Below are positions 4,661 to 23,953 of a DNA stretch of 32,000 nucleotides, piece by piece. Both the position numbers and the translations under genes were made by a program. Location of the stretch: assembly GCF_000981785.2 (NCBI RefSeq), contig NZ_CP011304.1, forward strand, positions 4,170,001 to 4,202,000, in the 5' to 3' direction. Position 1 is the first letter of the stretch. Each line of letters begins with the position of its first letter. The notes under the pieces are model-generated. The model had not been told where the DNA came from, did no database searches, and worked only from the letters and a program-made list of their open reading frames with translations. Origin of the DNA: Microcystis aeruginosa NIES-2549. GTDB lineage: Bacteria; Cyanobacteriota; Cyanobacteriia; Cyanobacteriales; Microcystaceae.

Positions 4661-4741
4661 CCCTTAATAAGGGGGGTGCCGACAATTTTTAACACCTACC
4701 TGCTTAGGTACTTAATAAAGTTGTGATTAGGAGAAAAAACG

Positions 4742-5335
4742 ATGATTGCTTTATCTAACTATAATAATCTCACTCCAGAAGAATATCTTCAGTTTGAAGA
4801 AACCAGTCTCATTAAACATGAATATATCGATGGACAAGTTTACGCCATGGCAGGGACGACGGATACTCATAATATTATCGGACTCAATTTCACTTTTATT
4901 ATTCGTAATCATTTGCGGGGTTCTGGTTGTCGAGTTTATTTTGCCGATGTGAAAGTCAGATTAGAGAAACGTAATCACTTTTATTATCCTGATATTATTG
5001 TCACCTGCGATAACAGAGATAGAGAAACCGCTACCTACAAAAGTTTTCCTAAATTGATTGTTGAAGTTCTCTCCGATTCTACAGAAGCTTTTGACAGGGG
5101 GGATAAATTTAATGATTATCAAACTCTAGAAAGTTTAGAGGAATATGTCTTAGTGAATAGTAAACACCAACGAGTGGAAACTTTTCGACGGGGTGAACAG
5201 GGTTTATGGATTCTGCAAACCTATCAGCAAGAAAGTTTTAGTTTACAGAGTATTAATCTGACGGCATCTTTTCGGGATTTATACGGGGATGTCACCCTAG
5301 AAACGGTTAATTATTCCGTGGAAGAAATAGAATAA
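4742..5335 (+). CDS. Uma2-family (DUF820) putative PD-(D/E)xK endonuclease, intact copy
   Basis: 197 aa. Typical Uma2 pattern: EEYLQFEETSLIKHEYIDGQVYAMAGTTDTHN ... YYPDIIVTC ... PKLIVEVLSDSTEAFDRGDKF..Y..L.SLEEYVLV. Its stop is 1 nt from the stop of the convergent MotB-like gene. Confidence 0.8.
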   Translation: MIALSNYNNLTPEEYLQFEETSLIKHEYIDGQVYAMAGTTDTHNIIGLNFTFIIRNHLRGSGCRVYFADVKVRLEKRNHFYYPDIIVTCDNRDRETATYKSFPKLIVEVLSDSTEAFDRGDKFNDYQTLESLEEYVLVNSKHQRVETFRRGEQGLWILQTYQQESFSLQSINLTASFRDLYGDVTLETVNYSVEEIE

Positions 5336-5336
5336 A

Positions 5337-5978
5337 TCATTGTTTTTTACCGGGGGGAATAAAACGGATTTCAATTCTGCGTCTGCTTGCATCTGCGTCA
5401 CGATTAACCGCAGCTAAGTTACCCGATGGTAGGTATAACTGTCCTGCGGAAAAAGCTCGAAATTTGACGTTTTTGAGTTTACCTGTGTTTTCGATTTCTT
5501 GGACTACTGCTAAAGCTCGCATTAATCCTAAATCAGTGTTAGAACCGGGTACTAGCATTTTAACAGATTGTTTTCTGCTGGCAACCGATTCGATATTTTT
5601 ATCGAGATTACTTGTCTTCTGTATTCCTTGTCCGTCGGTGTGTCCAATTACTTGAATAAAGTCGATTTCTCTGTCTTTGGTAATGGTTTCGATAGCGGGA
5701 ATAATGCGCTGACGAATATGGGTTTTTAAAGCAGGGTTTAATTCAGCACTTCCCGACTGAAATTTAAATTTTCCTGATTTTTCATCGATAACTATGGGGG
5801 TTGCTGTTTGCAGTTTTCGGTTAGCTTCCTCCAGTTTGCTGATGAGATTATAGGACTGAAAAAGTGCCAAGAGGAGAAATAAACTCAGAATCATGAAAGC
5901 ATTGGACATTAAATCGGTAAATGCGGGATAAACATCCACCGATTTATCTTCATCTCGGTAGTAGGTACGTCTAGACAT
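5337..5978 (-). CDS. MotB/OmpA-like (ZorB/ExbD-position) stator subunit: N-terminal TM with a conserved Asp plus an OmpA-type peptidoglycan-binding domain
   Basis: 213 aa. YPAFTDLMSNAFMILSLFLLLAL is a MotB-type plug/TM segment with Asp. The C-terminal half carries OmpA_C-like motifs: FQSGSAEL, VIGHTDGQG, NTDLGLMRALAV, RRRIEIRF. Confidence 0.75.
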   Translation of the reverse strand: MSRRTYYRDEDKSVDVYPAFTDLMSNAFMILSLFLLLALFQSYNLISKLEEANRKLQTATPIVIDEKSGKFKFQSGSAELNPALKTHIRQRIIPAIETITKDREIDFIQVIGHTDGQGIQKTSNLDKNIESVASRKQSVKMLVPGSNTDLGLMRALAVVQEIENTGKLKNVKFRAFSAGQLYLPSGNLAAVNRDADASRRRIEIRFIPPGKKQ

Positions 5979-6000
5979 AGTTACTTATATGTTGGTGAAG

Positions 6001-9000
6001 TTATTCAAATAGGGTGTTAATGTCATCCAGAACATCTTTTTGAGGAGGATTAGGGATTGTCTCACAAAGTTTTTCTATCTTATCCTTTAAGTTAGAAAAT
6101 TCAGACTGAACATCTTTTTGAGTAGGATTAGGGATTGTCTCAAAAAGGTTTTTAAGTTCTTCCAACTTCTTATTTAACTTATAAATGTCATCCTGAACAT
6201 CTTTTTGAGGAGGATTAGGGATTGTCTCAAAAAGTTCTTTAAGTTCTTCCATCTTATTATTTAAGTTAGAAAAGTCAGAACGCATATCGTTAATTTTCTC
6301 CAGTTCTGCTAAACATTTTTGAATTTCTCCATAAATATGTTCAATCATTTTCTGATTCGATTTATTTTCCTTAGCGATAACTTTCTCTAACTTATCTCGC
6401 AAAGATTCTAAGTTAGCAGTTAATTGACTGGTGTTGGTGTTCACCGCATCAATTACTTGAGAAAAATCTGATTTAAGGCTGCCAAATTGATTGGCTGTTT
6501 TCTCAATAGATTGGGAAACTGCTTTTAATTGTTCTGAGTTCTTAGTTAATTTATCATCAACTACCATCCCTAAGTTATTGCTTAAAAGGTTTAACTCAGA
6601 CTGTAAGCTTTCCTTGACTTGAGTAAGTTGCTCTGTCACTGTATCAATTAACTGAGACAAGTTAGCATTAGTCACATCGAGATTATTACTAGAGCGCTCA
6701 ATCCCATGGGAAGCTGTGAGGATTTTATCGGAGGTTTGGGAGAGTCTTTCATCGAGACTATTGATAAGTTGGTTTCCTAATTGTTTCGACTCGGAGTTAA
6801 AACTGTCTTGATAGGTTTTCACAGTTTCGATTAATTTTACTAATTCTCCCTGAATGTTAGATAACTTTTCTTGTTCGGTGACTGAGCGTTGCTGATTTTG
6901 TTCTAGGATTTTCTCAGAGACTTGAGTAAGTTGCTCTGTCACTGTATCAATTAACTGAGACAAGTTAGCATTAGTCACATCGAGATTATTACTAGAGCGC
7001 TCAATCCCATGGGAAGCTGTGAGGATTTTATCGGAGGTTTGGGAGAGTCTTTCATCGAGACTATTGATAAGTTGGTTTCCTAATTGTTTCGACTCGGAGT
7101 TAAAACTGTCTTGATAGGTTTTCACAGTTTCGATTAATTTTACTAATTCTCCCTGAATGTTAGATAACTTTTCTTGTTCGGTGACTGAGCGTTGCTGATT
7201 TTGTTCTAGGATTTTCTCAGAGACTTGAGTAAGTTGCTCTGTCACTGTATCAATTAACTGAGACAAGTTAGCATTAGTCACATCGAGATTATTACTAGAG
7301 CGCTCAATCCCATGGGAAGCTGTGAGGATTTTATCGGAGGTTTGGGAGAGTCTTTCATCGAGACTATTGATAAGTTGGTTTCCTAATTGTTTCGACTCGG
7401 AGTTAAAACTGTCTTGATAGGTTTTCACGGTTTCGATTAATTTTACTAATTCTCCCTGAATGTTGGATAACTTTTCTTGTTCGGTGACTGAGCGTTGCTG
7501 ATTTTGTTCTAGGATTTTCTCAGAGACTTGAGTAAGTTGCTCTGTCACTGTATCAATTAACTGAGACAAGTTAGCATTAGTCACATCGAGGTTATTACTA
7601 GAGCGCTCAATCCCGTGGGAAGCAGTGAGAATTTTATCGGAGGTTTGGGAGAGTCTTTGCTCAAGACGATTGATAAGTTGGTTTCCTAATTGTTTCGACT
7701 CGGAGTTAAAACTGTCTTGATAGGTTTTCACAGTTTCGATTAATTTTACTAATTCTCCCTGAATGTTAGATAACTTTTCTTGTTCGGTGACTAAGCGTTG
7801 CTGATTTTGTTCTAGGATTGTCTCAGATTTTTGATTCAAGTCAGTAATTTTTATTCCTAACTCAACCATAGTTGTCATGGAACGCTGGAAGTCTTGAGTT
7901 AAAGAAGCTAGAGATTGAGTTGATTGGTTTAACTCAGACTGTAAGCTTTCCTTGACTTGAGTAACTTGCTCTGTCACTGTATCAATTAACTGAGACAGGT
8001 TAGCATTAGTCACATCTGGATTATTACTAGAGCGCTCAATCCCATGGGAAGCTGTGAGAATTTTATCGGAGGTTTGGGAGAGTCTTTCATCGAGACTATT
8101 GATAAGTTGATTGCCTAATTGTTTCGACTCGGAGTTAAAACTGTCTTGATAGGTTTTCACAGTTTCGATTAATTTTACTAATTCTCCCTGAATGTTAGAT
8201 AACTTTTCTTGTTCGGTGACTGAGCGTTGCTGATTCTGTTCTAGGATTTTCTCAGAGACTTGAGTAAGTTGCTCTGTCACTGTATCAATTAACTGAGACA
8301 AGTTAGCATTAGTCACATCGAGGTTATTACTAGAGCGCTCAATCCCATGGGAAGCTGTGAGGATTTTATCGGAGGTTTGGGAGAGTCTTTCATCGAGACT
8401 ATTGATAAGTTGGTTTCCTAATTGTTTCGACTCGGAGTTAAAACTGTCTTGATAGGTTTTCACAGTTTCGATTAATTTTACTAATTCTCCCTGAATGTTA
8501 GATAACTTTTCTTGTTCGGTGACTGAGCGTTGCTGATTTTGTTCTAGGATTTTCTCAGATTTTTGATTCAAGTCAGTAATTTTTATTCCTAACTCAACCA
8601 TAGTTGTCATTGAACGCTGGAAGTCTTGAGTTAAAGAAGCTAGAGATTGAGTTGATTGGTTTAACTCAGACTGTAAGCTTTCCTTGACTTGAGTAACTTG
8701 CTCTGTCACTGTATCAATTAACTGAGACAGGTTAGCATTAGTCACATCGAGATTATTGCTAGAGCGCTCAATCCCATGGGAAGCTGTGAGGATTTTATCG
8801 GAGGTTTGGGAGAGTCTTTCATCGAGACTATTGATAAGTTGGTTTCCTAATTGTTTCGACTCGGAGTTAAAACTGTCTTGATAGGTTTTCACAGTTTCGA
8901 TTAATTTTACTAATTCTCCCTGAATGTTAGATAACTTTTCTTGTTCGGTGACTGAGCGTTGCTGATTTTGTTCTAGGATTTTCTCAGATTTTTGATTCAA

Positions 9001-9711
9001 GTCAGTAATTTTTATTCCTAACTCAACCATAGTTGTCATTGAACGCTGGAAGTCTTGAGTTAAAGAAGCTAGAGATTGAGTTGATTGGTTTAACTCAGAC
9101 TGTAAGCTTTCCTTGACTTGAGTAAGTTGCTCTGTCACTGTATCAATTAACTGAGACAGGTTAGCATTAGTCACATCGAGATTATTGCTAGAGCGCTCAA
9201 TCCCATGGGAAGCTGTGAGGATTTTATCGGAGGTTTGGGAGAGTCTTTCATCGAGACTATTGATAAGTTGGTTTCCTAATTGTTTCGACTCGGAGTTAAA
9301 ACTGTATTGATAGGTTTTCACGGTTTCGATTAATTTTACTAATTCTCCCTGAATGTTGGATAACTTTTCTTGTTCGGTGACTGAGCGTTGCTGATTTTGT
9401 TCTAGGATTTTCTCAGATTTTTGATTCAAGTCAGTAATTTTTATTCCTAACTCAACCATAGTTGTCATTGAACGCTGGAAGTCTTGAGTTAAAGAAGCTA
9501 GAGATTGAGTTGATTGGTTTAACTCAGACTGTAAGCTTTCCTTGACTTGAGTAAGTTGCTCTGTCACTGTATCAATATTATTACTTAAGCGGTTGACTTT
9601 TTTGGTTGACTCTTGGAGATGTTTATAGAGAGCAATTAAGACGGTGGGAAAAATAACCAAGACTAGAATTAAAAGAATCAGATAGGGAGGAAAAAGGTTA
9701 AGTAATGCCAT
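6001..9711 (-). CDS. Giant single-pass membrane coiled-coil protein made of near-identical tandem modules; its N-terminus is paralogous to the MotA-like gene at 10430-11974
   Basis: 1236-aa uninterrupted ORF. The N-terminal TM MALLNLFPPYLILLILVLVIFPTVLIALYKHLQ is about 90% identical to that of the 541-aa ORF. It is followed by 8 modules of 143/101 aa and a unique C-terminal 230 aa with 3x ETIPNP(P/T)QKDV. The MotA channel helices are absent. Confidence 0.7.
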   Translation of the reverse strand: MALLNLFPPYLILLILVLVIFPTVLIALYKHLQESTKKVNRLSNNIDTVTEQLTQVKESLQSELNQSTQSLASLTQDFQRSMTTMVELGIKITDLNQKSEKILEQNQQRSVTEQEKLSNIQGELVKLIETVKTYQYSFNSESKQLGNQLINSLDERLSQTSDKILTASHGIERSSNNLDVTNANLSQLIDTVTEQLTQVKESLQSELNQSTQSLASLTQDFQRSMTTMVELGIKITDLNQKSEKILEQNQQRSVTEQEKLSNIQGELVKLIETVKTYQDSFNSESKQLGNQLINSLDERLSQTSDKILTASHGIERSSNNLDVTNANLSQLIDTVTEQVTQVKESLQSELNQSTQSLASLTQDFQRSMTTMVELGIKITDLNQKSEKILEQNQQRSVTEQEKLSNIQGELVKLIETVKTYQDSFNSESKQLGNQLINSLDERLSQTSDKILTASHGIERSSNNLDVTNANLSQLIDTVTEQLTQVSEKILEQNQQRSVTEQEKLSNIQGELVKLIETVKTYQDSFNSESKQLGNQLINSLDERLSQTSDKILTASHGIERSSNNPDVTNANLSQLIDTVTEQVTQVKESLQSELNQSTQSLASLTQDFQRSMTTMVELGIKITDLNQKSETILEQNQQRLVTEQEKLSNIQGELVKLIETVKTYQDSFNSESKQLGNQLINRLEQRLSQTSDKILTASHGIERSSNNLDVTNANLSQLIDTVTEQLTQVSEKILEQNQQRSVTEQEKLSNIQGELVKLIETVKTYQDSFNSESKQLGNQLINSLDERLSQTSDKILTASHGIERSSNNLDVTNANLSQLIDTVTEQLTQVSEKILEQNQQRSVTEQEKLSNIQGELVKLIETVKTYQDSFNSESKQLGNQLINSLDERLSQTSDKILTASHGIERSSNNLDVTNANLSQLIDTVTEQLTQVSEKILEQNQQRSVTEQEKLSNIQGELVKLIETVKTYQDSFNSESKQLGNQLINSLDERLSQTSDKILTASHGIERSSNNLDVTNANLSQLIDTVTEQLTQVKESLQSELNLLSNNLGMVVDDKLTKNSEQLKAVSQSIEKTANQFGSLKSDFSQVIDAVNTNTSQLTANLESLRDKLEKVIAKENKSNQKMIEHIYGEIQKCLAELEKINDMRSDFSNLNNKMEELKELFETIPNPPQKDVQDDIYKLNKKLEELKNLFETIPNPTQKDVQSEFSNLKDKIEKLCETIPNPPQKDVLDDINTLFE
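6031..6235. repeat. Three copies of a 34-nt box (encodes the ETIPNPPQKDV motif) at the 3' end of the giant gene
   Basis: aacatctttttgag(g/t)aggattagggattgtctca starts at 6031, 6109 and 6196 (spacing 78 and 87 nt). Confidence 0.75.
6590..9575. repeat. In-frame tandem array: 8 units of 303 nt or 429 nt, nearly identical
   Basis: The anchor GACTTGAGTAA(G/C)TTGCTCTGTCACTG occurs at 6616, 6919, 7222, 7525, 7954, 8257, 8686, 9115 and 9544. Spacings are 303,303,303,429,303,429,429,429 nt. Confidence 0.9.
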
Positions 9712-9895
9712 GATAGTTATTGGATACCTCGAATTGTGGTTGATAGAGAGAGTTGGGGGTGAATGTTTCCTCAGATAGCTGGGGAAACATCATTAAGATT
9801 AATAAATTTTATCATTCATCAGTAGTGCTAACCTCTCCGGGTAAACTGGGTTGACTACTGTTATTGTTTGTTCCCAGTAAAGTTTGTTGCTTTTT
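9585..9895. repeat. Segmental duplicate (copy 2) of 11831-12158: the 5' end of the MotA-like gene, the spacer and the last 28 codons of the tubulin-like gene
   Basis: By eye it aligns at roughly 90-95% identity with 11831-12158. Differences include a 15-nt indel and a G5 versus G7 run. Confidence 0.85.
9812..9895 (-). pseudogene. Remnant of the 3' end of the tubulin-like gene (last ~28 codons plus stop)
   Basis: The reverse complement reads ...QQTLLGTNNNSSQPSLPGEVSTTDE*, matching the C-terminus of the 12077-15220 product (…LLGTNNNSSQPSLPAEVSTTDE*). Confidence 0.8.
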
Positions 9896-9909
9896 CAACG
9901 ATTAAACCC

Positions 9910-10419
9910 ATGATTGCTTTATATAGCTATAATAATCTCACTCCAGAAGAATATCTTCAGTTTGAAGAAACCAGTCTCATTAAACATGAATATATCGATG
10001 GACAAGTTTACGCCATGGCAGGGACGACGGATACTCATAATATTGTTTTGGGGAATATATACACAATTATTTGTAATCATTTGCGGGGGTCCGATTGTCG
10101 GGTTTATTTTGCCGATGTGAAAGTCAGATTAGAGAAACGCAATCACTTTTATTATCCTGATATTATTGTCACCTGCGATGACAGAGATAGAGAAACCGCT
10201 ACCTACAAAAGTTTTCCTAAATTGATTGTTGAAGTTCTCTCCGATTCTACAGAAGCTTTTGACAGGGGGGATAAATTTAATAATTATCAAACTCTAGAAA
10301 GTTTAGAGGAATATGTCTTAGTGAATAGTAAACACCAACGAGTGGAAACTTTTCGACGGGGTGAACAGGGTTTATGGATTCTGCCGATTTATCTTCATCT
10401 CGGTAGTAGGTACGTCTAG
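9910..10419 (+). pseudogene. 3'-truncated second copy of the Uma2 endonuclease gene, fused to antisense MotB-like sequence
   Basis: 9910-10384 parallels 4742-5216, with the protein identical except around residues 45-55. After ...GEQGLWIL the frame runs into the reverse complement of the MotB-like start (PIYLHLGSRYV*). The TTG-initiated extension from 9868 in the ORF track is tubulin-remnant sequence. Confidence 0.75.
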
Positions 10420-10423
10420 ACAT
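10385..10423 (-). pseudogene. 13-codon 5' remnant of a MotB/OmpA-like gene
   Basis: The reverse complement encodes MSRRTYYRDEDKS, identical to 5940-5978. Its ATG lies 6 nt after the stop of the MotA-like gene. The rest of the gene is deleted. Confidence 0.8.
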
Positions 10424-10429
10424 AGTTAC

Positions 10430-11974
10430 TTAGAATGGTTTTTTGATACTATCAGATACTTGATTGATTTCTTTTTCCATCTCAGATAAAAAAGAATTTT
10501 TCTGTTGATTGCTAAGGTTAATAATTTGGTTTAAGATGGCTTGTATATCTCTGAGATAACTGACTGTTTGCTGACTTTTCTCAGCAATAATTTCTCCTTG
10601 ATAATTATTACGGCCAACTTCTTGAGAAATTAATCGACTTAACCGGTCACCTAAAGCAGTTAATTGGTCTGAGTTATTGTTAATATTGTGAGTAGTTTCT
10701 AATAAGTTGTTTTGGATTGACTGAAGAGAAATAAGTAGTTGTTCAGTCCTTTCATTGAGAACAATGTTTAAATTTTGACTTTCTTTACGAATTGATAGAG
10801 AAGACTGTCCTAAATTTTTAATTTCCGCTTCTACGCTTACCAAGCTTTTGAAAGTATTATGAACATTATCTGTTGCTTGACTCATCAATTTAGTTAAACT
10901 ATCTATATGTTCCACTGTTAGACATAACTTAGCATGAGTAGAATATAACTTTTCAGAAGTTGCGACTAAATTATCAGTAACTTGACTATTAACTAATTTA
11001 TCAACTGTCGATTTAAAGTTACTAATGCAGTTATCCAAACTCTGACCATATTTAACAAAGTTTTCGTGGTGAATTGCTTTATATAATTTGTTGACATTTT
11101 CTTCAAAACTATTGGTAGAACTCTTAAAAGTCGTCGCACCGGTAGATAAAGTTCCTGCGGTTTCAGTTAATCTTTCACAAACCTGAGTGACTAATTTAGC
11201 AGTTTCCTGATTACCATCATCAATTTTTTTAGCAACTTTCTCTAAAGAAGATTCTAATACTCTCGTCACCTCATTATGAAAGTTAGTCAGAAATGCTTGC
11301 TGTGTATCCACCATGCGATTAACCGCTTTATCCAAGCGACTATTCCCTTCTACAGTCGGCTGCAAGATATTATCTAAATAGTCTTCTAGGGAACTAATTA
11401 GATTTACTTTAGCAAGGTTGGTATTAAAGATTAAGTTAATCACAGTCAGCAAAGAACTACAAGCTAAACCAATTAAGCTAGTGATAAAAGCAATCCCCAT
11501 GCTTTCTAGGGGAGTTTTGAGCTTTTCTCCTAAACTTTGCAAATCGACATTATTAATATCGATAAGTGTGCTGATTCCCGTCAGATTGAGAGTAATTCCG
11601 AAGAAAGTTCCCAACAAACCAAAAGCGAGGAGGAGATTGGGTAACACTCTTACAAAATAATCCCATTTTTCGCAACTGAGAGATTTAGACATGAAAGTAA
11701 ATTGTTCTTCATGGTATAAACCATCTACCAAAGCTGCGGTATTAACATCATCTAGTTGACTACTGGCTATCTTAAATCTATTCTCTAGATTAGAGATAAT
11801 TTTAGGTTGAACCCCGCGACTTTCTCCCCGAATTAAGCGCTTGACTTTTGCAGTTGAATCTTGGAGATGTTTATAGAGAGTCATCCGGATTCTCACAGCT
11901 AAGACGGTGGGAAAAATAACCAAGACTAGAGTTAAAACAATCAGATAGGGGGGAAAAAGGTTAAGTAATGCCAT
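10430..11974 (-). CDS. MotA/TolQ/ExbB-family proton-channel protein with a ~330-aa C-terminal coiled-coil tail (ZorA-like architecture)
   Basis: TM1 is LFPPYLIVLTLVLVIFPTVL. The channel signature is LLLAFGLLGTFFGITLNL ... SMGIAFITSLIGLACSSLLTVINLIF (compare ExbB/TolQ GLFGTVWGI ... GIAEALIATAIGL). A long heptad-rich tail follows. I chose the start at MALLNLF (11974) because the paralogue at 9711 starts there; the ORF is also open to 12055. Confidence 0.75.
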   Translation of the reverse strand: MALLNLFPPYLIVLTLVLVIFPTVLAVRIRMTLYKHLQDSTAKVKRLIRGESRGVQPKIISNLENRFKIASSQLDDVNTAALVDGLYHEEQFTFMSKSLSCEKWDYFVRVLPNLLLAFGLLGTFFGITLNLTGISTLIDINNVDLQSLGEKLKTPLESMGIAFITSLIGLACSSLLTVINLIFNTNLAKVNLISSLEDYLDNILQPTVEGNSRLDKAVNRMVDTQQAFLTNFHNEVTRVLESSLEKVAKKIDDGNQETAKLVTQVCERLTETAGTLSTGATTFKSSTNSFEENVNKLYKAIHHENFVKYGQSLDNCISNFKSTVDKLVNSQVTDNLVATSEKLYSTHAKLCLTVEHIDSLTKLMSQATDNVHNTFKSLVSVEAEIKNLGQSSLSIRKESQNLNIVLNERTEQLLISLQSIQNNLLETTHNINNNSDQLTALGDRLSRLISQEVGRNNYQGEIIAEKSQQTVSYLRDIQAILNQIINLSNQQKNSFLSEMEKEINQVSDSIKKPF

Positions 11975-12158
11975 GATAGTTATTGGATACCTCGAATTGT
12001 GGTTGATAGAGAGAGTTGGGGGGGTGAATGTTTCCTGAGATAGCTGGGGAAACATTATTAAGATTGCTCAATTTTATCATTCATCAGTAGTGCTAACCTC
12101 TGCGGGTAAACTGGGTTGACTACTGTTATTATTTGTTCCCAGTAAACTTTGTTGCTTT
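11831..12158. repeat. Segmental duplicate (copy 1) matching 9585-9895
   Basis: See 9585-9895. It spans the tubulin-like stop (12077), the spacer and the first ~45 codons of the MotA-like gene. Confidence 0.85.
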
Positions 12159-15100
12159 TGCTGTTGTTTTTCGAGTTTTTTCTGTTCACCAGTACGTTTT
12201 TCTAGTTCCATTTTCAGTTGATTAACAAAACGGGTGATAATTCCTTCTTTTGCCTCCTGTTGAGTATTTCCATCTTGTCCAGCTACCTTATCTTTGTAGC
12301 GATAATTGGGGTGATAGGAGGGTAAATTTTTGACATTGTTGACAAAATAGCTGACGTTCTGGAAATAATCACCCTCGTTAGTAAATAATAGGGTAGGATT
12401 AGCCAAAATCTCATTTTTTGCCTGATTAAGCAGTATCTGCAAAGCATTAATCATGTCATTACGAGAAGCAAATTGTTCTAAGGCAAGTCGCCAATTACCG
12501 CTAATGTCAATGATGGACTTATTGTTAAATAAATCGCCTTCGATGACTAATTGATAAGTATCATCTTCCTCATCGTATTCTAGTAAACCGAGAGCAATTG
12601 CGGGATAGAAAATAAACTCTAATTCCTCAATTAATTTGGCAGGTGGTGGAATAATATCAGCAAAATCTATCCTGTAATCATTGTGTAAAATGCTGATTCT
12701 TTTTTGGTCTTGATAGATTTGTTGCAACCCAGATAAATCAGTAATGATTCTTAGGGGAAACCCACCAAACTCGTAGGTAATTAGGATTTCTTCGTCGGTT
12801 TGAATTGATTTAAAAGAAGTTCCCTTAATATTTAAATCAGATTCAAGAGTCTTCATAAATCTTTGCATGGTGGGTGAATTATCATCCTTAGTCCCAATTA
12901 GTAATGCTTTATCTGTATGCAAGCGATAGTAAGCATCATTAACATTTATCGGTAACATTAAATCAGCTTCTCGCAGAATTTGCGCCAAGCGTTCAGGAAA
13001 ATCATGGGGTTTATATTGACCCATAAATCGCTTAATTACTGCATCAATTTTATTAGTGCTTACTGATTGAAACTGTTTCTCGATTGTAGCTGTTAGAGTC
13101 TCTTTGAGAGTCTCATTATCAATAACAAAAGATTGGCTAAATAAACTGAATAGGGAAGCATTATAGCCTAAATTATTGGTGACTTTTTGGCTAACGGAAA
13201 TGTATTGAGTTCGGGAGTTACTGTCCGGGATACAGTTATCAATATTCTCCTCTGGAAAAATACCTTCCCCAGTCATCTCGTCGAGATTTAACTGCATTAA
13301 CTCCTGTTCGTATTTATCGTATTCTGTGATTAGCTGATATAGGGATTCTTTCAGTTGTTGTATCTGCAGCATTCGACTGGAAATATGCTTGAGAATCGCT
13401 TCAACAATCTTTCTAGATTCGCGATTGATACTGAAATTAAAGTTCTGCTGAATTAATTTTTGTCCGCTTTGAACGTAGTCTCTTAACTCAGCTTTGATTC
13501 TCTCACTATTGGCATTTTTATTGAACATCTTGAAGACAGACTTTTTCCCGTTTATATCTTCGAGAGTTTGTTTAACATTTCGCCAAATGTTATCAATTTT
13601 TTCCGAGGAATGAAACCCTTTATTATCCTGAGATAATTCCTCTAGATTCCCCTTGTAGGTATTAATCTGTACTTGTAAAGCGACCAAAAAAGATAGGCTA
13701 TTTTCCAAAGAAAATTCTAAGCTATCAGGATTAAGAAGAATCTCCAAAAATTGGTCAATATCTGACTTAAATTTTTCGATTAATTTAGGTTGAGTTTGTT
13801 GGGTCAGAGTTAACCAGATTCCACGACTGCTATCCGTTTCTCCCCCCTGTACTTTGCGAAACTCTTTTTCTAGGGATTGCTTGACGGTTTGGGGTAAATT
13901 CTCCAAATCTTGACTATTGGATATTTCTTCCTCTAGGGAATTTTTCCAAGAGGTTAAAGTCTTGGAAAAAGTTTTATTATTCTCTAGGGTTGCTTCTTCC
14001 AATCTGGCAGTAAAATAATCCTTATTACTTTGGGTACTCCAATTAGCTAGGAACTTACTTAATAACTCTTGTCCACTGGGACTTTGACCATATCCCTCTA
14101 ACCAAAATTTAATTAATTTGAGACTAAAACGATTGAGACCAATCTGCACAATTCGGTCGCGAGTAAAATAAATCCTCGCTAGTCCAAAGGACATATAACC
14201 TTGACACATCTGAAAAGGATGATTATCTTTACGAATCATCGGGTCTTTATAGTTATCCCGATTGCTTTTGATGGGGAGAGATAACTCATCGGCAAAATCC
14301 AAGAAAATCTTGTAAGCAATGACATTACATAATTTACCTTTGTTATTAATCCGGTAATCTCCCGCAGTGCGATTAGAAACTAAGTAGGCAAAATCAAAAG
14401 GAGAACGTTTTTCATCGATGTGGACGAAATTTTGTTTATCATAACAGGCTTGAAAGGAATTACTTTCATTGGTATAATGATCTAACTCTTTCAAAGCTGC
14501 ATAGGTATTAGCTCTCATAATTGCCCCATCACCATAAAGTTTAGGACTAATTACCAAATAACCAAAGGATGTATATTCGGCCGTTTGTTGTAAAATATGA
14601 CGCAAAGTGTAGGCCACATCGAGGAAAATACCGCTACCAGTTCCCCCACACAAAGAACCGACAACAAAGACATTTAAACCCTCTTGGACATTAAAACTTT
14701 GACCGTTAACTTTACCGCTAAACATAAAGGATTCATGACCAGAAGTTCGTCTTTCCGCTGCTTCAATTGCCTCCTGAATTTTTTGATAGTTATGGAAGAA
14801 AGCTAAACGACCGACGGGACGAATACCTCCCGCACCATTTTCAATGGCAGTTATTTGTTTTTTTAGTCTTGGGTCTAACCAGCTTTCAATATGGGAAAAG
14901 GGACTTTCAAAAAGGGTTTTGTGTTCAAGTTCATAGGTGAGATTGTTAACATCCTGAGCATTCATATTAATGAATACTCTTTCAGCAGCTGATAGAAGAA
15001 TTTCTTCTCCGTGATAGCTATTTCCTGTGGGTAAACCCGAACCATTGAAAGCGTTTTTGTCTGTGTCAATATGAACAAAACTGACAACGGGTAGGTTAGA

Positions 15101-15220
15101 TAACTTCCCATACTTATCAATAATAAAGCGACGAATTCTCATTAACACATCTCGACCAGTACCACCTAATCCGATGATAATTGTCCGTTTGATAGCGCGG
15201 GTTTGACTGGTGTTAGCCAT
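12077..15220 (-). CDS. Large tubulin/FtsZ-superfamily GTPase (Pfam Tubulin_2 / FtsZl-1-like) with a ~700-aa C-terminal extension
   Basis: 1047 aa. T1-type loop TIIIGLGGTGRDV at residues 13-25. Tubulin signature GGTGSG in VFVVGSLCGGTGSGIFLDVAY. The C-terminal two thirds are helical/coiled-coil and end in a Q/K-rich low-complexity tail. AGGAG lies about 10 nt upstream of the ATG. Confidence 0.8.
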   Translation of the reverse strand: MANTSQTRAIKRTIIIGLGGTGRDVLMRIRRFIIDKYGKLSNLPVVSFVHIDTDKNAFNGSGLPTGNSYHGEEILLSAAERVFINMNAQDVNNLTYELEHKTLFESPFSHIESWLDPRLKKQITAIENGAGGIRPVGRLAFFHNYQKIQEAIEAAERRTSGHESFMFSGKVNGQSFNVQEGLNVFVVGSLCGGTGSGIFLDVAYTLRHILQQTAEYTSFGYLVISPKLYGDGAIMRANTYAALKELDHYTNESNSFQACYDKQNFVHIDEKRSPFDFAYLVSNRTAGDYRINNKGKLCNVIAYKIFLDFADELSLPIKSNRDNYKDPMIRKDNHPFQMCQGYMSFGLARIYFTRDRIVQIGLNRFSLKLIKFWLEGYGQSPSGQELLSKFLANWSTQSNKDYFTARLEEATLENNKTFSKTLTSWKNSLEEEISNSQDLENLPQTVKQSLEKEFRKVQGGETDSSRGIWLTLTQQTQPKLIEKFKSDIDQFLEILLNPDSLEFSLENSLSFLVALQVQINTYKGNLEELSQDNKGFHSSEKIDNIWRNVKQTLEDINGKKSVFKMFNKNANSERIKAELRDYVQSGQKLIQQNFNFSINRESRKIVEAILKHISSRMLQIQQLKESLYQLITEYDKYEQELMQLNLDEMTGEGIFPEENIDNCIPDSNSRTQYISVSQKVTNNLGYNASLFSLFSQSFVIDNETLKETLTATIEKQFQSVSTNKIDAVIKRFMGQYKPHDFPERLAQILREADLMLPINVNDAYYRLHTDKALLIGTKDDNSPTMQRFMKTLESDLNIKGTSFKSIQTDEEILITYEFGGFPLRIITDLSGLQQIYQDQKRISILHNDYRIDFADIIPPPAKLIEELEFIFYPAIALGLLEYDEEDDTYQLVIEGDLFNNKSIIDISGNWRLALEQFASRNDMINALQILLNQAKNEILANPTLLFTNEGDYFQNVSYFVNNVKNLPSYHPNYRYKDKVAGQDGNTQQEAKEGIITRFVNQLKMELEKRTGEQKKLEKQQQKQQSLLGTNNNSSQPSLPAEVSTTDE

Positions 15221-15237: not shown

Positions 15238-16362
15238 TTATTTTTTGCTAATCTGAATTTGTAGGTCGAAATCTTGATGGTTATGGTGATAGGTTAAAGT
15301 CAGGTAATTTTTATCTATCTTCACCTCCTGAGTTAGTTGATTACCTCGATAAAAAATCTCTGCTTGTTTACTGGGTTTCAGATATAACTGATTGCCGCGT
15401 CTTTCTAAATAGCAGCGAATTTCTTCCCCAGCACGAGAAAAGGTATTCTTCTTATGTTCTTCACCACCGATGTTAATTTTTCCAGATGTTTTTAAAATAT
15501 ATTTTTGGGTTTCATCTTCATCATCATTAGAGGAGACTTCAATAGTCCAAGCAGTATTTAACAGCAACCAGTGACGAATTCCCAAAATACTCGCTACTAT
15601 TCCCCCAATTCCCATTAATGTAATTACCAATGCTGGCAACCATAACTGACTCAAGAGATAAGGATTAATCAAACAGGTTTCTTGTCCTCCCGGTGCGGGA
15701 GTACAAAACTCTTGTGCTGTGGGAGCAATATCGACAACTGATAGTTGATATTTATTGCCGTTAGTGGCGGTAATTTCTTGGGTTCTTAGATTAATTGGTA
15801 GGGAATTAAGCCAGTTTTGTCTCTCCAAACTTTCGGGAGAATCAGCAAGACGAAAAGGGCTATTTTTTGGGGTTTCTATCCACTGTTGGGAAGTAATCCC
15901 CGCGCCAGTAGAAAGGGGTGCATCGGTAATCCAAACTACCGACTGGGGTTTGATAGCTTGATTGGCAGTTAAACGACACTGATTTAAGCGTGCCAGTCGG
16001 GGATAAACGTGCCATTCTGCTTGCTGAATATCGGTATTTTTAGCACTTTGGCTAGATTGCCAGGGAATCGCCTTTAAAACCGCGTCTATATCTTCCTGAC
16101 TCCGAATTAAAATCGGTTCTGCAATCGGTTGAACATTATCAGCAAAGGGGAATAAATAAACGGAATCGTTATTTTTTAAACTATCGCGAATAATTTGACC
16201 GAGGCGCGTGCGTCCTTCATCATTAAAGTTAACACTACCGGTAAGATCGATCGCTAGGATAACATCTCGTCCCTGCCAACGAGCCACCAAATCTAATCCG
16301 AGTTTTTGCCAATCAGTAAGCGGTTCCCCGGGGGATACCGTTAAACATTCAGCACTTTTCAT
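15238..16362 (-). CDS. vWA-domain protein with a central TM helix and a C-terminal beta-rich (degenerate FHA-like) domain
   Basis: 374 aa. The MIDAS-like start of a vWA fold is VILAIDLTGSVNFNDEGR ... SVYLFPFADNV ... VVWITDAPL. The TM is LWLPALVITLMGIGGIVASILGI. The tail YILKTSGKINIGGEE...IRCYLERRGNQLYLKP...IFYRGNQL resembles an FHA topology but lacks the canonical R/S/H residues. The stop is 17 nt before the tubulin-like start. Confidence 0.65.
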   Translation of the reverse strand: MKSAECLTVSPGEPLTDWQKLGLDLVARWQGRDVILAIDLTGSVNFNDEGRTRLGQIIRDSLKNNDSVYLFPFADNVQPIAEPILIRSQEDIDAVLKAIPWQSSQSAKNTDIQQAEWHVYPRLARLNQCRLTANQAIKPQSVVWITDAPLSTGAGITSQQWIETPKNSPFRLADSPESLERQNWLNSLPINLRTQEITATNGNKYQLSVVDIAPTAQEFCTPAPGGQETCLINPYLLSQLWLPALVITLMGIGGIVASILGIRHWLLLNTAWTIEVSSNDDEDETQKYILKTSGKINIGGEEHKKNTFSRAGEEIRCYLERRGNQLYLKPSKQAEIFYRGNQLTQEVKIDKNYLTLTYHHNHQDFDLQIQISKK

Positions 16363-20755: not shown

Positions 20756-21478
20756 TTATTCAGAGTTTAAGCGATCAGGCGACCATCCCCAATATATTTT
20801 CTGTTCCCCATAATACTCTTTAAGAATTGCATAACTGACAATCTCAAAAACTCTAGCATCAATGTTTGGTCTGAGTAAACTCCGAATAAATTCAATGGCT
20901 TTCTGGGGATCTTGCTGTTGAATATCAATCATCTGTTGACAATAGCTGATAAATTGATTAAATGCTTTTTGTCTTGTTTGCACATAGGCATCAATTATAT
21001 CTATAATCACTGGCGCAATATTAACTTGATTACCCTCTAGATAAAACTTAATTAGATTCTCATTAATCCAGTATCTATTGGTTTTAACATCTCTAATTAT
21101 CGGCAGATAAGATAAGGTGGGAAAATACTTGTTAAATTCCTGATTTAATCGATGATTGAGAGCATGATTTTGTAATTTATTGCCAAAAGGAAGCTCCCTT
21201 TGCCTGCGAAAAAGTGTCATATACTGAGCGCCTTGATACTCGTCGTATCCATCCTTAAGATGAAACTCATTATTAATATAGTCTTCCACTAAAACATAAA
21301 TTGCATAATGGTTAGCCAATCCTGCTCGGGATTTAGAACCTCGATTAGCAGCTCTAGTTTTAATGTTCAAATATTGCAATAACTCACTAGCATTTAAAAT
21401 ACTATTTCCCTGATTAGGAAAGTAATTATCGATAATTTTAATAATTATCTTGGTGAATTCATGCTTTACTATCGACAT
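20756..21478 (-). CDS. Putative type II restriction endonuclease, N-terminal fragment (ends inside an Mrr-like PD-(D/E)xK core)
   Basis: The start at MSIVKHEF (21478) overlaps the upstream methyltransferase stop by 20 nt. The C-terminus ...DARVFEIVSYAILKEYYGEQ... resembles the first helix of Mrr-type nuclease domains. The role assignment is mainly positional. Confidence 0.5.
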   Translation of the reverse strand: MSIVKHEFTKIIIKIIDNYFPNQGNSILNASELLQYLNIKTRAANRGSKSRAGLANHYAIYVLVEDYINNEFHLKDGYDEYQGAQYMTLFRRQRELPFGNKLQNHALNHRLNQEFNKYFPTLSYLPIIRDVKTNRYWINENLIKFYLEGNQVNIAPVIIDIIDAYVQTRQKAFNQFISYCQQMIDIQQQDPQKAIEFIRSLLRPNIDARVFEIVSYAILKEYYGEQKIYWGWSPDRLNSE

Positions 21479-22352
21479 CGAAAAGACTCTCCTGTACAAA
21501 GTTAGATTCTTGTTTATTTTCGCTTTTTCTACTATAGCTTTTTTGAGGAGGGAGTAACTTTTCTCCCTTGTATTCTTGCCATCCGAGAATCCGTCGAAGA
21601 CCAATTTTTAAATACTGCTCTTGTAATTCTATACTAATAGAAATTCTTCCCAAACGTTTAGCTACAGCTGCAGATGTAAAAGTTCCTGCAAATGGATCAA
21701 GCACAATTCCACTCTTGTCAGTGCTGGCCAAAATAATTCTTTCTAGCAATGATTCAGGTTTTTGTGAAGGATGATTTTCGTATTCATCCATGCGATATCT
21801 GACCCTAGGGAAATACCAGACATTGCCCGGCACTTTCTCTGTATTGTATTGACTCGGAATCGCTTTTCTATAATCAATTAGTTTTCGTTTTGCTCCAGTT
21901 TTTGCTTCTATCTTAATATCCTTTGAATTAAAAGTGTAATTATTTTTATCTTTCACACAGTGAAGTATTGGTTCATACATCGAACCAAAGTATTTTGTTG
22001 CTTGTACTCCTGAACTATCATAATGCCAGATAATACGACTAAGAATCGTCATTTTTTGTCTTAAGTAAAGATCAAAGTAAGGCATTGCTTGAGTGCTGGC
22101 CATAACATATAATGTTCCCTGGGGTTTCAAGATACGAAGACACTGATCAAGAATTTGATTTGCCCAATTTATATAATCATTTTCCGATTCCCATTTGTCG
22201 TAAAAATCGGCAAAGTGCTTACCTATATTATAGGGAGGATCGAGAAAAATTAGATCTACAGAATTAGAGGCAATCTCACTGGATAAAATCGGCAAAGAAT
22301 CACCATGAAATATAACTTGCTCATCAGCTTCGTATCGTTTAAACATGATCAT
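21459..22352 (-). CDS. Beta-class DNA amino-methyltransferase (N6-adenine or N4-cytosine)
   Basis: 297 aa. Motif IV LIFLDPPYN is near the N-terminus and motif I VLDPFAGTFTSA is near the C-terminus, which is the IV-before-I order of beta-class MTases. Confidence 0.85.
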   Translation of the reverse strand: MIMFKRYEADEQVIFHGDSLPILSSEIASNSVDLIFLDPPYNIGKHFADFYDKWESENDYINWANQILDQCLRILKPQGTLYVMASTQAMPYFDLYLRQKMTILSRIIWHYDSSGVQATKYFGSMYEPILHCVKDKNNYTFNSKDIKIEAKTGAKRKLIDYRKAIPSQYNTEKVPGNVWYFPRVRYRMDEYENHPSQKPESLLERIILASTDKSGIVLDPFAGTFTSAAVAKRLGRISISIELQEQYLKIGLRRILGWQEYKGEKLLPPQKSYSRKSENKQESNFVQESLFDVDSKA

Positions 22353-22561
22353 TTTTTTAATTTAAAGTAGTTAGATTTTTACTAGGAAATGTCTCAATTT
22401 TTAACCTCCTTAGCGATTAGGATAATTGACAGACTTTATCATAAATATGAAGTATAACCTAATTTGGTATTGATGACCGACTTCTGACGACAGACTCCCC
22501 ACAACAAAAACTTGGATTTTTAAGCCTTTAAATATTTTAATATGAGTCAGTATCCCGCAGT

Positions 22562-23953
22562 CTAATAATCAGTCCGAATTATTTCTAGTAAATTTCTAGC
22601 CACTGCTTCCACTACAGTGATAGGAACAGAATTTCCGAATTGTTTTTTAGCGATAGCTGACTGTGGATGATAGATAAAATTATCGGGGAATCCTTGTAAT
22701 TTACGCGCATCTTGGGGAGTAATTTCTCGAAACTTTTTGGGTTTATAGATTTTCTTTAAAAACAATTGTTTGTATTCTTGGGGATGAGTAGCGGTAATTG
22801 AAATAGTGGCAATATAATCTTTAGCACCCGTAGCGGTTAGGGTAGGAATAATATCGGCCGTCGGTAAAATAATCCGATAAATGCCGTTAATTCCCGTCAT
22901 ATTTTTCGAGTTAATAAATTCATACTTACCTGCGGTCGTTTGCCAACAAATACCCAGAGAAACTAACTGATTTAGTTCCTCGATTTTTAGGTCGGGTATA
23001 ATTTCCAAAAAAGTAGAAAAAGCCACGGGATGACCATCTTTTTCGCCATACTTTTTACTGCGTCTTAATTTCAGCAAAGCTAAACAGATACTTTTTTGTC
23101 GTTCCGTAGTTTTGATAATATCCCAAGAATGAATAGTTGTGTGGCCATTTCTTAAATCAGAAAAAATAAAGAAGTCATTTAATTCATCTTCTTTTTGAAA
23201 ACGAGTTCTCGATGGAGGAACAAAACCATTAAATAAAGTATCTGCTGATAACTTAACTTTCTCGACGGGTTGAATATTTTTGATGTCTTCTAAAATATCT
23301 AAAACCTTGGGATGGATACCCAAAGGTAAAGGAAATTTAAACCGCTCATAGTTATCTATATTTTTTCTAATTCCTACGATAAAAACTCTCTCGCGATTCT
23401 GGGGTAAACCAAAATCGTAGGCATTTAATAACTGCCAGTAAACTTGATAACCACAGCTAGTTAATTCATCGATAATTAACTCTAAATTCTCCCGATTGCG
23501 AGGACTAGCTAACCCACTGACATTCTCGAAAATAAAGCTTTTGGGTTGACTTTTCTGGACTAATTTAATCACATCAAACCAGAGTTTTCCCCGGGGATCT
23601 TCAAATCCCCGTAAACATCCCGCCACCGACCAAGGTTGACAGGGAACGCCGCCGACAATAAGATCAAGATTATCGGGTAAATTGCTGATTTTACTCACAT
23701 CTCCGAAAGCAATTTCATCGCTGTTGAGATAGCTAATAAAATTCTGTTGATAAACTTGGATGGCCTGTTTATCAATTTCTGAATAACCTAAACAACGTCC
23801 TCCCAATTTCTCCAAAGCGATTCTAAACCCACCGATTCCCGCGAATAAATCGACAAAACGATACTGGGGATGGGTGATAACTAGATGTAGGGGTAATTGG
23901 GTTTGTGTGCTGACTTTAACTGTGGTTTTCAAGGGTAAATAATTGCTTTTCAC
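22562..23953 (-). CDS. DNA (cytosine-5)-methyltransferase
   Basis: 463 aa. Motif I DLFAGIGGF, motif IV GGVPCQPWS, motif VI FENV, motif VIII QNRERVFIVG, a ~200-aa variable target-recognition region, and motif X GNSVPITVV. Confidence 0.9.
   Translation of the reverse strand: MKSNYLPLKTTVKVSTQTQLPLHLVITHPQYRFVDLFAGIGGFRIALEKLGGRCLGYSEIDKQAIQVYQQNFISYLNSDEIAFGDVSKISNLPDNLDLIVGGVPCQPWSVAGCLRGFEDPRGKLWFDVIKLVQKSQPKSFIFENVSGLASPRNRENLELIIDELTSCGYQVYWQLLNAYDFGLPQNRERVFIVGIRKNIDNYERFKFPLPLGIHPKVLDILEDIKNIQPVEKVKLSADTLFNGFVPPSRTRFQKEDELNDFFIFSDLRNGHTTIHSWDIIKTTERQKSICLALLKLRRSKKYGEKDGHPVAFSTFLEIIPDLKIEELNQLVSLGICWQTTAGKYEFINSKNMTGINGIYRIILPTADIIPTLTATGAKDYIATISITATHPQEYKQLFLKKIYKPKKFREITPQDARKLQGFPDNFIYHPQSAIAKKQFGNSVPITVVEAVARNLLEIIRTDY

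Follow-up and report, generated by a model that had tools for sequence, protein, structure and literature searches.

A ZorA-like channel subunit with a long helical tail in the FtsZl1 gene cassette of Microcystis aeruginosa NIES-2549

To our knowledge, ZorAB is the only characterized 5:2 motor with a long cytoplasmic tail, and in Zorya, this tail has been proposed to signal to ZorC and ZorD. Among related motors, the ExbD and TolR partners carry no OmpA-type domain, and the MotB partner has a plug. Here, we describe a gene of Microcystis aeruginosa NIES-2549 that lies on the minus strand at positions 10430-11974 of a 32,000-nucleotide (nt) stretch of the genome (NZ_CP011304.1, positions 4,170,001 to 4,202,000; hereafter, the window). 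Its product of 514 amino acids (aa), followed by a stop codon, combines a channel domain with three transmembrane (TM) segments (aa 1-205) and a helical cytoplasmic tail (aa 213-514). Our data support its assignment as an A subunit of the MotA/ExbB superfamily with ZorA-type architecture. In addition, the gene occupies third place in a cassette ordered as vWA-TM protein, FtsZl1 (a tubulin-like protein of the Tubulin_2 family), ZorA-like A subunit, and ZorB-like B subunit.

The operon itself was catalogued by Makarova and Koonin in 2010 (PMC2875224), who described cyanobacterial FtsZl1 as vertically inherited. For strain NIES-843, Additional file 5 of that paper lists MAE_58760 (vWA, COG2304), MAE_58770 (FtsZl1), MAE_58780 and MAE_58790 (both B7), and MAE_58800 (COG1360, OmpA), and it also records a MotA/TolQ/ExbB protein beside FtsZl1 in Deinococcus. 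B7 was referred to there only as a "membrane-associated protein" and was not recognized as MotA-like, while the OmpA-like partner was treated as being of the outer-membrane beta-barrel type. The target fits the definition of B7, i.e., a membrane protein encoded between FtsZl1 and a COG1360 OmpA gene, downstream of a COG2304 vWA gene. As far as we can tell, these B7 and OmpA genes had not before been recognized as encoding a tail-bearing 5:2 motor. Our literature search found no functional study and no paper that links ZorAB-like motors to FtsZl1, which is not proof of absence, and neither a paper on MotAB evolution nor one on Zorya modularity mentions tubulin or cyanobacteria.

The longest minus-strand frame that ends at 10430 spans 12055..10430 and encodes 541 aa. 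The N termini of homologues coincide with its internal M28 (MALLNLFPPYL), which indicates that 10430-11974 is the right extent of the gene, in agreement with the first-pass annotation of this DNA, which had been made by a model from the letters and a list of open reading frames (ORFs). The resulting 514 aa fall inside the span of 499-750 aa covered by 49 intact orthologues. Exact-sequence look-ups of this product and of a 1236-aa product of the same window (see below) returned no match. A Kyte-Doolittle analysis of the 514-aa protein revealed three hydrophobic segments (residues 11-29, ~110-132, and 161-179) and none beyond residue 180. TM1, a peripheral helix (aa 11-29; 11888..11944, minus strand), has a hydropathy of 2.66 and is followed directly by a stretch rich in K and R, which is consistent with a cytoplasmic loop. 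The core of TM2 (aa 110-132; 11579..11647, minus strand) reads LPNLLLAFGLLGTFFGIT and includes the family-invariant residues P112, L115, G119, and T123. The core of TM3 (aa 161-179; 11438..11494, minus strand) reads IAFITSLIGLACSS, with F163 invariant and S166 conserved in at least 90% of the family. All family-invariant residues are retained in the target.

Two AlphaFold2 runs, one of the full-length protein with 61 homologues and the other of the N-terminal domain with 27, gave mutually consistent models. Residues 1-205 were modeled with a predicted local distance difference test (pLDDT) score of 85-98, and the domain-only model reached a predicted template modeling score of 0.79. The domain is built, in order, from a TM1 helix (9-48), two short helices, a beta-hairpin (91-100), TM2 (101-138), and TM3 (145-182), after which an additional helix follows (185-207). 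The TolQ/ExbB-like layout of three TM segments with a TM2/TM3 hairpin, as it had been read from the sequence in the first pass, is therefore reproduced by both the hydropathy profile and the modeled helices.

Sequence comparisons place this domain nearest to ZorA. When searched without the tail, it matched the PADLOC ZorA1 model PDLC00597 with an E value of 5.8e-18 (residues 11-203 on profile positions 7-198), and the same model was matched by 25 of 27 diverse family members. The best NCBIfam match was antiphage_ZorA_2 (E 8.4e-10). A full-length family profile run against the PDB was dominated by biased matches to the tail, such as methyl-accepting chemotaxis proteins (MCPs) and designed bundles, and an N-terminal-only profile was used instead. 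Among all PDB sequences, this profile found only ZorA chains to be significant (E 3.5e-6 to 7.7e-4), namely, E. coli 8QYH, 8QYY, 8QYK, and 8QYD (3.5e-6 to 1.3e-5), Shewanella 8VVN (3.3e-5), and 8VVI (7.7e-4). ExbB was not significant in the same search (E 2.2). A single-sequence phmmer search of the PDB gave a marginal match only (8vvi_F, E 0.55). The Pfam model MotA_ExbB (PF01618) was matched by 6 of the 27 family members (best E 2.8e-6), and the tail-less domain of the target did not match it at E 0.01. Collectively, the ZorA model match, the exclusive significance of ZorA chains in the PDB, and the helical tail bear out the earlier idea of a ZorA-like tailed channel.

The predicted fold is in line with this placement. 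In Foldseek searches of the PDB with both models, the top 50 matches were all A subunits of 5:2 motors (ZorA, TolQ, ExbB, PomA, and MotA), with ZorA ranked first for the full-length model; Foldseek probabilities ranged from 0.30 to 1.00 across the list and stood at 1.00 for the top matches. Since the template modeling scores (TM-scores) are alike for ZorA, TolQ, and ExbB, the comparison of folds alone cannot tell ZorA from TolQ or ExbB; it is the fold that places the target in the MotA/ExbB superfamily and the sequence that places it nearest to ZorA. In E. coli ZorA, T147 and S184 form the filter that faces Asp26 of ZorB (Hu et al., PMC11946911). In our hidden Markov model (HMM) alignment, these residues correspond to T123 in TM2, which is invariant in the family, and to the highly conserved S166 in TM3.

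The tail occupies 10433..11338 of the minus strand, and its delimitation draws on DSSP assignment, hydrophobic periodicity, and homologues. DSSP analysis of the AlphaFold2 model showed residues 213-511 to be all helix, in five segments separated by four short breaks. The hydrophobic periodicity of the tail is 3.55-3.65 residues, above the 99th percentile of shuffled sequences; at 3.5, the period of canonical heptads, the signal all but vanishes, which makes the earlier description of the tail as heptad-like imprecise. The tail is better described as a bundle of amphipathic helices than as a classical coiled coil with heptads. The first pass was right that no further TM segment follows the channel domain, whereas its estimate of ~330 residues was too long (~300 aa), and its description of the region as low complexity did not hold. 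The same tail class, which we term B-type, is recognizable in metagenome-derived cyanobacterial homologues (P0040 and P0069), so the tail is not low-complexity filler; it is also present in two Microcystis loci (L010 and L011). P0040 shares 54% identity with the target across 95% of the protein, and the C-terminal motif QTV(S/G)YL(R/K)DIQ is kept in B-type tails, including those of P0040 and P0069.

A 5:2 motor also needs its B subunit, and the window holds an intact gene for a ZorB/MotB-like protein of 213 aa at 5337..5978 on the minus strand. This protein has one TM segment, which contains D22, and an OmpA-type peptidoglycan-binding domain; it matched PADLOC ZorB1 (E 2.2e-9) and Pfam OmpA (E 5.8e-5), and a single-sequence search of the PDB gave marginal matches to MotB only. 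Conservation reaches at least 90% across 69 sequences in three places: the segment FTDLMSNAFMI, which contains D22; the GHTD motif; and N147..L150..R154. As judged from sequence, this pattern is the MotB/ZorB signature, namely, a TM aspartate together with a putative peptidoglycan-binding fold.

Directly behind the target, only a 13-codon remnant of such a gene is left (10385..10423, minus strand; MSRRTYYRDEDKS), which stops short of the TM helix and of the conserved Asp. The 49 bases at 10384-10432, directly 3' of the target stop codon, match the beginning of the intact B gene (5939-5987) at 100% identity. The joint at 10383/10384 is clean; compared with the intact copy, 723 bp have been deleted there, and the remnant runs into the antisense strand of a truncated Uma2 gene. 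The first-pass annotation was therefore correct that the target has lost its adjacent MotB-type partner, but the loss concerns adjacency only, since the intact copy of B follows 4.4 kb further downstream, beyond a paralogue of the target that retains TM1 alone. That annotation drew no connection between this second, TM1-only paralogue and the target. The target most likely uses this surviving B gene.

The genes upstream of the target complete the cassette. FtsZl1 lies immediately upstream (12077..15220, minus strand) and encodes a tubulin-like GTPase of 1047 aa with a GGTGSG motif (Tubulin_2, PF13809, E 2.8e-99). The first cassette gene (15238..16362, minus strand) encodes a vWA-like membrane protein of 374 aa with one TM segment at 244-262 and a weak match to VWA_2 (E 0.02). 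In this protein, DLTGS replaces the DxSxS of the metal ion-dependent adhesion site, and a C-terminal domain of ~110 aa has no family match. In the canonical Microcystis locus of CP046973.1, the order is GntR, vWA (374 aa), Tubulin_2 (1048 aa), A (718 aa), B (213 aa), two Uma2 genes, and an acyl-CoA ligase gene, and the flanks of that locus are the same genes as those of the window. The Tubulin_2 and vWA neighbors gave no PADLOC match, and neither the window nor the canonical loci L006 and L008 contained a gene for ZorC, ZorD, or ZorE-G.

We scanned one genome per species, based on 17 closer sequences. At least 239 genomes contained a relative, and locus counts were taken from the best 80 of these, all of which are cyanobacteria from several orders (Microcystis, Pleurocapsales, Trichodesmium, Nostocales, Prochloron, and others). 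When only loci with sufficient flanks are counted, the A gene is directly preceded by Tubulin_2 at 61 of 68 and followed by a B gene at 61 of 67, and a vWA gene accompanies it at 58 of 68. A tblastn search with the N-terminal domain came back empty from 72,556 plasmids and 50,697 phages, as would be expected if the system is chromosomal and passed on vertically.

In light of these results, we propose with moderate confidence that the target is the A subunit of a peptidoglycan-anchored, ZorAB-like proton motor whose tail couples to FtsZl1 and the vWA protein and whose output is envelope remodeling. By analogy with solved ZorAB complexes, five A subunits would surround two of the 213-aa B subunits, in which D22 would serve as the essential TM aspartate and the OmpA-type domain as the anchor to peptidoglycan, with T123 and S166 of A predicted to face D22. 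Proton flow through D22 would then turn or shift A relative to the anchored B. The five ~300-aa tails may bundle into a helical shaft that extends ~40 nm into the cytoplasm, a length scaled from the 70-nm model of the ~507-aa E. coli ZorA tail (residues 223-729) at ~0.14 nm per residue. This shaft could relay motor rotation, or a change in conformation, from the envelope to the membrane-located FtsZl1/vWA module, and the outcome would be membrane or envelope remodeling rather than nuclease-based defense. We favor such a chromosomal role because of the broad cyanobacterial distribution, the vertical inheritance reported in 2010, and the lack of a match in the plasmid and phage collections.

Several observations weigh against this reading. 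The target misses the curated NCBIfam cut-offs (38.3 bits versus 100 for NF033915, and 23.8 versus 500 for NF033917), and PF01618 remains below threshold (E 0.044; 14 bits versus 22.9). The Foldseek E values are weak (best 2e-3), with TM-scores of only 0.36-0.53, and the Ca2+-site residues E86 and E89 of ZorA align to K58 and S61 of the target, within a stretch of low-confidence alignment. The tail was modeled with a pLDDT of only 42-79, and both its bundling and its length are consequently predictions of low confidence. Two comparisons proved uninformative on coupling between the tail and FtsZl1: the lengths of A and FtsZl1 are not correlated (rho 0.11, p 0.44), and FtsZl1 proteins are 96-100% identical whatever the tail class. 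Finally, the hypervariable tails, the repeat expansion, and the insertions of insertion sequence (IS) elements and toxin-antitoxin genes at the locus would also fit a conflict system.

This last point leads to the alternative that survives best, which we regard as a serious rival, although clearly less probable than envelope remodeling. According to it, the cassette serves in conflict or anti-phage defense but is distinct from Zorya; the anatomy would be the same, with the motor sensing envelope perturbation during infection and the tail activating FtsZl1 and vWA as effectors. The nearest characterized relatives of the target are all Zorya defense proteins, and Uma2 nuclease genes flank the cassette in Microcystis. 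Two deeply diverged tail classes segregate there as alleles, tail length varies from 456 to 892 aa, and tandem repeats have expanded recently. In other genomes, the locus has received a NACHT-like NTPase, a PIN toxin-antitoxin pair, or IS elements, and the version in Deinococcus deserti resides on a mobilizable megaplasmid. However, the occurrence of the cassette in at least 239 species-level genomes, the best 80 of them all cyanobacterial, together with the vertical inheritance of FtsZl1 (PMC2875224), argues against this reading, as does the lack of a match in plasmid or phage collections. In addition, FtsZl1 and vWA have no PADLOC match, the flanks of the window carry mostly housekeeping genes, and the cassette contains no nuclease or obvious toxic effector.

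The insertions are best seen in Prochloron-type genomes, in which the junction between A and B looks like an insertion hot spot. In Candidatus Paraprochloron terpiosi (L029, 12195-16864), and likewise in L023 and L071, 4-5 kb of foreign genes separate an intact A gene from an intact B gene. The genes in the L029 gap include those for two small coiled-coil TM proteins, a PIN-type toxin-antitoxin pair, and, oriented the other way, a NACHT-like NTPase of 703 aa.

The second alternative, which we consider improbable, is that the target is a decaying relic, i.e., an orphaned and non-functional A subunit at a locus heading to pseudogenization. The locus also contains a second A-gene copy at 6001..9711 on the minus strand. 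The N terminus of this 1236-aa ORF is 74% identical to TM1 of the target and contains its single hydrophobic segment; without TM2 or TM3, it is fused straight to a tail of another class, which we term A-type. The ORF contains eight to nine in-frame tandem repeats of 303 or 429 nt (101 or 143 aa) at 6588-9576 that are 95-100% identical. Further downstream, three C-terminal repeats of 87 nt (6067-6277) carry the motif ETIPNPPQKDV. If its helix were extended, the 1236-aa product would span more than 150 nm. In addition, a duplicated segment at 9585..9894 is 90-98% identical to 11833-12159 (repeat families D9, D11, and D14) and comprises the last FtsZl1 codons, the intergenic region, and the TM1 coding region.

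Orthologues from other Microcystis genomes help to read this arrangement. The single-gene orthologue P0016 has 718 aa, of which the first ~285 are ~95% identical to the target and the remainder form an A-type tail; it holds one copy of the repeat unit, and this unit and the C terminus are nearly identical to those of the 1236-aa ORF. Conversely, the B-type tail occurs as a single-copy allele beside an intact B gene in Microcystis BLCC-F210 and NIES-4325. In BLCC-F210 (L011, 10966-12103), a two-ORF transposase-like insertion, probably an IS element, breaks the tail of this allele. Taken together with the duplicated upstream and TM1 regions, these orthologue tails indicate that the window contains two allelic A-B-Uma2 units in tandem. 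As the sequence is read here, copy 1 (the target) has kept its channel and lost B, and copy 2 still has B but is without the channel core and has an expanded tail. Each unit is associated with a plus-strand gene of the Uma2 family. The full-length gene (4742..5335; Pfam Uma2, E 9e-41) is convergent with the B gene, and the truncated one (9868..10419; E 1.3e-38) is 97% identical to 4736-5197, its 3' end having been replaced by the antisense of the B-gene remnant. These putative nuclease genes (PF05685) are convergent with each A-B unit and mark the boundaries of the segmental duplication; in the canonical Microcystis locus L006, two Uma2 genes stand in tandem.

The two tail alleles that stand in tandem here are ancient. 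Five independent metagenome contigs share an identical 35-nt deletion junction and an open 514-aa ORF that is 98% identical to the target; copy 2 is likewise open in this haplotype, and in one of the contigs (L004), it measures 318 aa. Moreover, the two B7 genes of NIES-843 encode 523 and 417 aa, sizes that are consistent with the split arrangement (PMC2875224). This recurrence points to a circulating haplotype and not to an assembly artifact of the window, and the copy-2 versions of 318 and 417 aa suggest that the repeat number varies or has collapsed in short-read assemblies.

A relic would be in keeping with the reduction of the adjacent B gene to 13 codons, the truncated Uma2 gene, the loss of the channel core from the second copy, and the IS element that breaks the sister allele in BLCC-F210; in E. 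coli, moreover, loss of any single Zorya gene abolishes defense (PMC11946911). Against it, the ORF of 1545 nt is intact and has kept all family-invariant residues, it is open in the five independent contigs with their identical junction, and the NIES-843 gene sizes match the split layout. An intact B gene, 97-99% conserved, also lies downstream on the same strand, and in Prochloron-type genomes, A and B have both remained intact despite the 4-5 kb between them.

That the target might be a bona fide ZorA of a Zorya system of types I-III is very improbable. ZorA HMMs are its best matches in both PADLOC and NCBIfam, and its tail is ZorA-like, but its score of 38 bits falls far below the curated NCBIfam cut-off of 100, no ZorC, ZorD, or ZorE-G gene accompanies it in the window or the canonical loci, and its conserved neighbors in ~90% of loci are FtsZl1 and vWA. 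Membership in Zorya, which the first-pass annotation had implied, must consequently be given up, with no ZorC, ZorD, or ZorE nearby and with Tubulin_2/FtsZl1 and a vWA-TM protein as the partners. As to an MCP or SMC-like coiled-coil protein, the probability is close to nil: source annotations suggest such an identity, and a profile of the family tail picks up the cytoplasmic bundles of MCPs (2ch7, E 2e-11) as well as designed helical bundles, but Pfam MCPsignal (PF00015) gave no match at E values up to 0.1, the MCP matches are limited to the compositionally biased tail, the tail of E. coli ZorA is likewise MCP-similar (PMC11946911), and the N-terminal domain, whose fold is predicted with confidence, is a channel of the MotA/ExbB type. 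We rejected the identities of a bona fide MCP, an SMC protein, a TolQ/ExbB energizer, and a canonical Zorya component.

In NCBI, UniRef, and JGI, Microcystis orthologues are named "methyl-accepting chemotaxis protein," "chromosome partition protein Smc," or "SbcCD ATPase subunit." These names appear to be misannotations caused by the biased helical tail.

Returning to the remodeling motor, we postulate, as an idea with somewhat less than an even chance of being right, that the ZorAB-like motor is an obligate membrane partner of FtsZl1, and that the two form a previously unrecognized motor-cytoskeleton machine across cyanobacteria that has diverged in Deinococcus. In such a machine, the stator, anchored to peptidoglycan, would act through the helical shaft to drive or gate a tubulin-like polymer. 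If this is true, Zorya may be one defense-specialized offshoot of a broader "motor with a shaft" signaling class.

The A/B module is also found elsewhere. Two loci (L089, 5868-8289, and L091, 4881-6647) encode distant members of the A family (27-29% identity) that are paired with B outside the FtsZl1 context; one pair includes a 577-aa A subunit beside a Reg_prop-like gene, and the other consists of a tail-less 294-aa A subunit with a 292-aa OmpA protein and adjoins murB. Such pairs without FtsZl1 suggest that the module is used in several systems. Within the window, ~4 kb beyond the cassette, the region 20756-23953 of the minus strand contains an N6_N4_Mtase gene (21459-22352), which is overlapped by a 282-aa ORF with no Pfam match, and a C5 cytosine methylase gene (22562-23953); these methyltransferase genes may represent a restriction-modification cluster.

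Our analysis points to a second, evolutionarily separate setting for the tailed-motor architecture, one that is chromosomal, is found in several cyanobacterial orders, and has a tubulin-like GTPase and a vWA protein in place of nucleases. The membrane-remodeling hypothesis for FtsZl1, now sixteen years old, would thereby gain a concrete energy source and an envelope anchor. The earlier view that the OmpA partner is an outer-membrane barrel is also corrected, and attention is drawn to a widespread misannotation of the family as chemotaxis receptors or SMC proteins. In addition, Microcystis offers natural experiments within one bloom-forming species, among them two tail classes, a variable repeat number, and a split-off paralogue with TM1 only.

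In comparison with the energizers ExbB/TolQ and the flagellar MotA/PomA, the target shares the superfamily fold, with TM-scores of 0.34-0.53 for TolQ and ExbB that are similar to those for ZorA, as well as the GLLGT motif of TM2 and a B partner with a TM Asp, but it has no significant sequence match to them, and the long tail is absent from them; no TonB, TolA, or flagellar gene was found in the window. The likeness to type I ZorA (E. coli 8QYD and Shewanella 8VVN) extends further, to an A subunit with three TM segments, a membrane-proximal domain with a beta-hairpin, and a long, all-helical C-terminal tail. As in ZorAB, a Thr in TM2 and a Ser in TM3 would face the Asp of B, and the partner is an OmpA-type protein with a single TM segment that carries this Asp. 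The target differs from ZorA in that it is only ~15% identical and below the curated cut-offs, has a tail of ~300 aa compared with ~500 aa in E. coli ZorA, and does not evidently conserve the Ca2+-site glutamates. Unlike Zorya, its locus has no ZorC or ZorD, with FtsZl1 and the vWA-TM protein as conserved neighbors, and the family is chromosomal and widespread across cyanobacteria rather than an island-borne accessory.

A further close relative is the FtsZl1 operon of Makarova and Koonin (2010), whose B7 (MAE_58780, MAE_58790, Tery_1706, and Ava_1849) belongs to the same gene family and the same operon as the target. What differs from the 2010 description is that we identify B7 as a ZorA-like A subunit with a tail and its OmpA neighbor as the MotB/ZorB-type partner. 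The order of a tubulin-like gene, then A, then OmpA recurs in Deinococcus, on plasmid 2 of D. deserti (DEIDE_RS15210/RS15215) and in D. radiodurans (DR_0537/DR_0536). In this genus, only the TM2-TM3 core can be aligned, the vWA gene is missing, a leucine-rich repeat protein and a beta-helix protein appear as accessories, and D. deserti carries its copy on a mobilizable megaplasmid. Nevertheless, TM2-TM3 of the 411-aa D. deserti A subunit matches the cyanobacterial profile (hhalign probability 95%, E 3e-8), the protein also matches ZorA models, to whose tail portions its C-terminal region of ~180 aa (aa ~230-400) aligns, and its gene is followed by that of a 200-aa OmpA/ZorB-like protein. The D. 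deserti locus thus indicates that the linkage of FtsZl1 to a tail-bearing, ZorAB-like pair spans two phyla.

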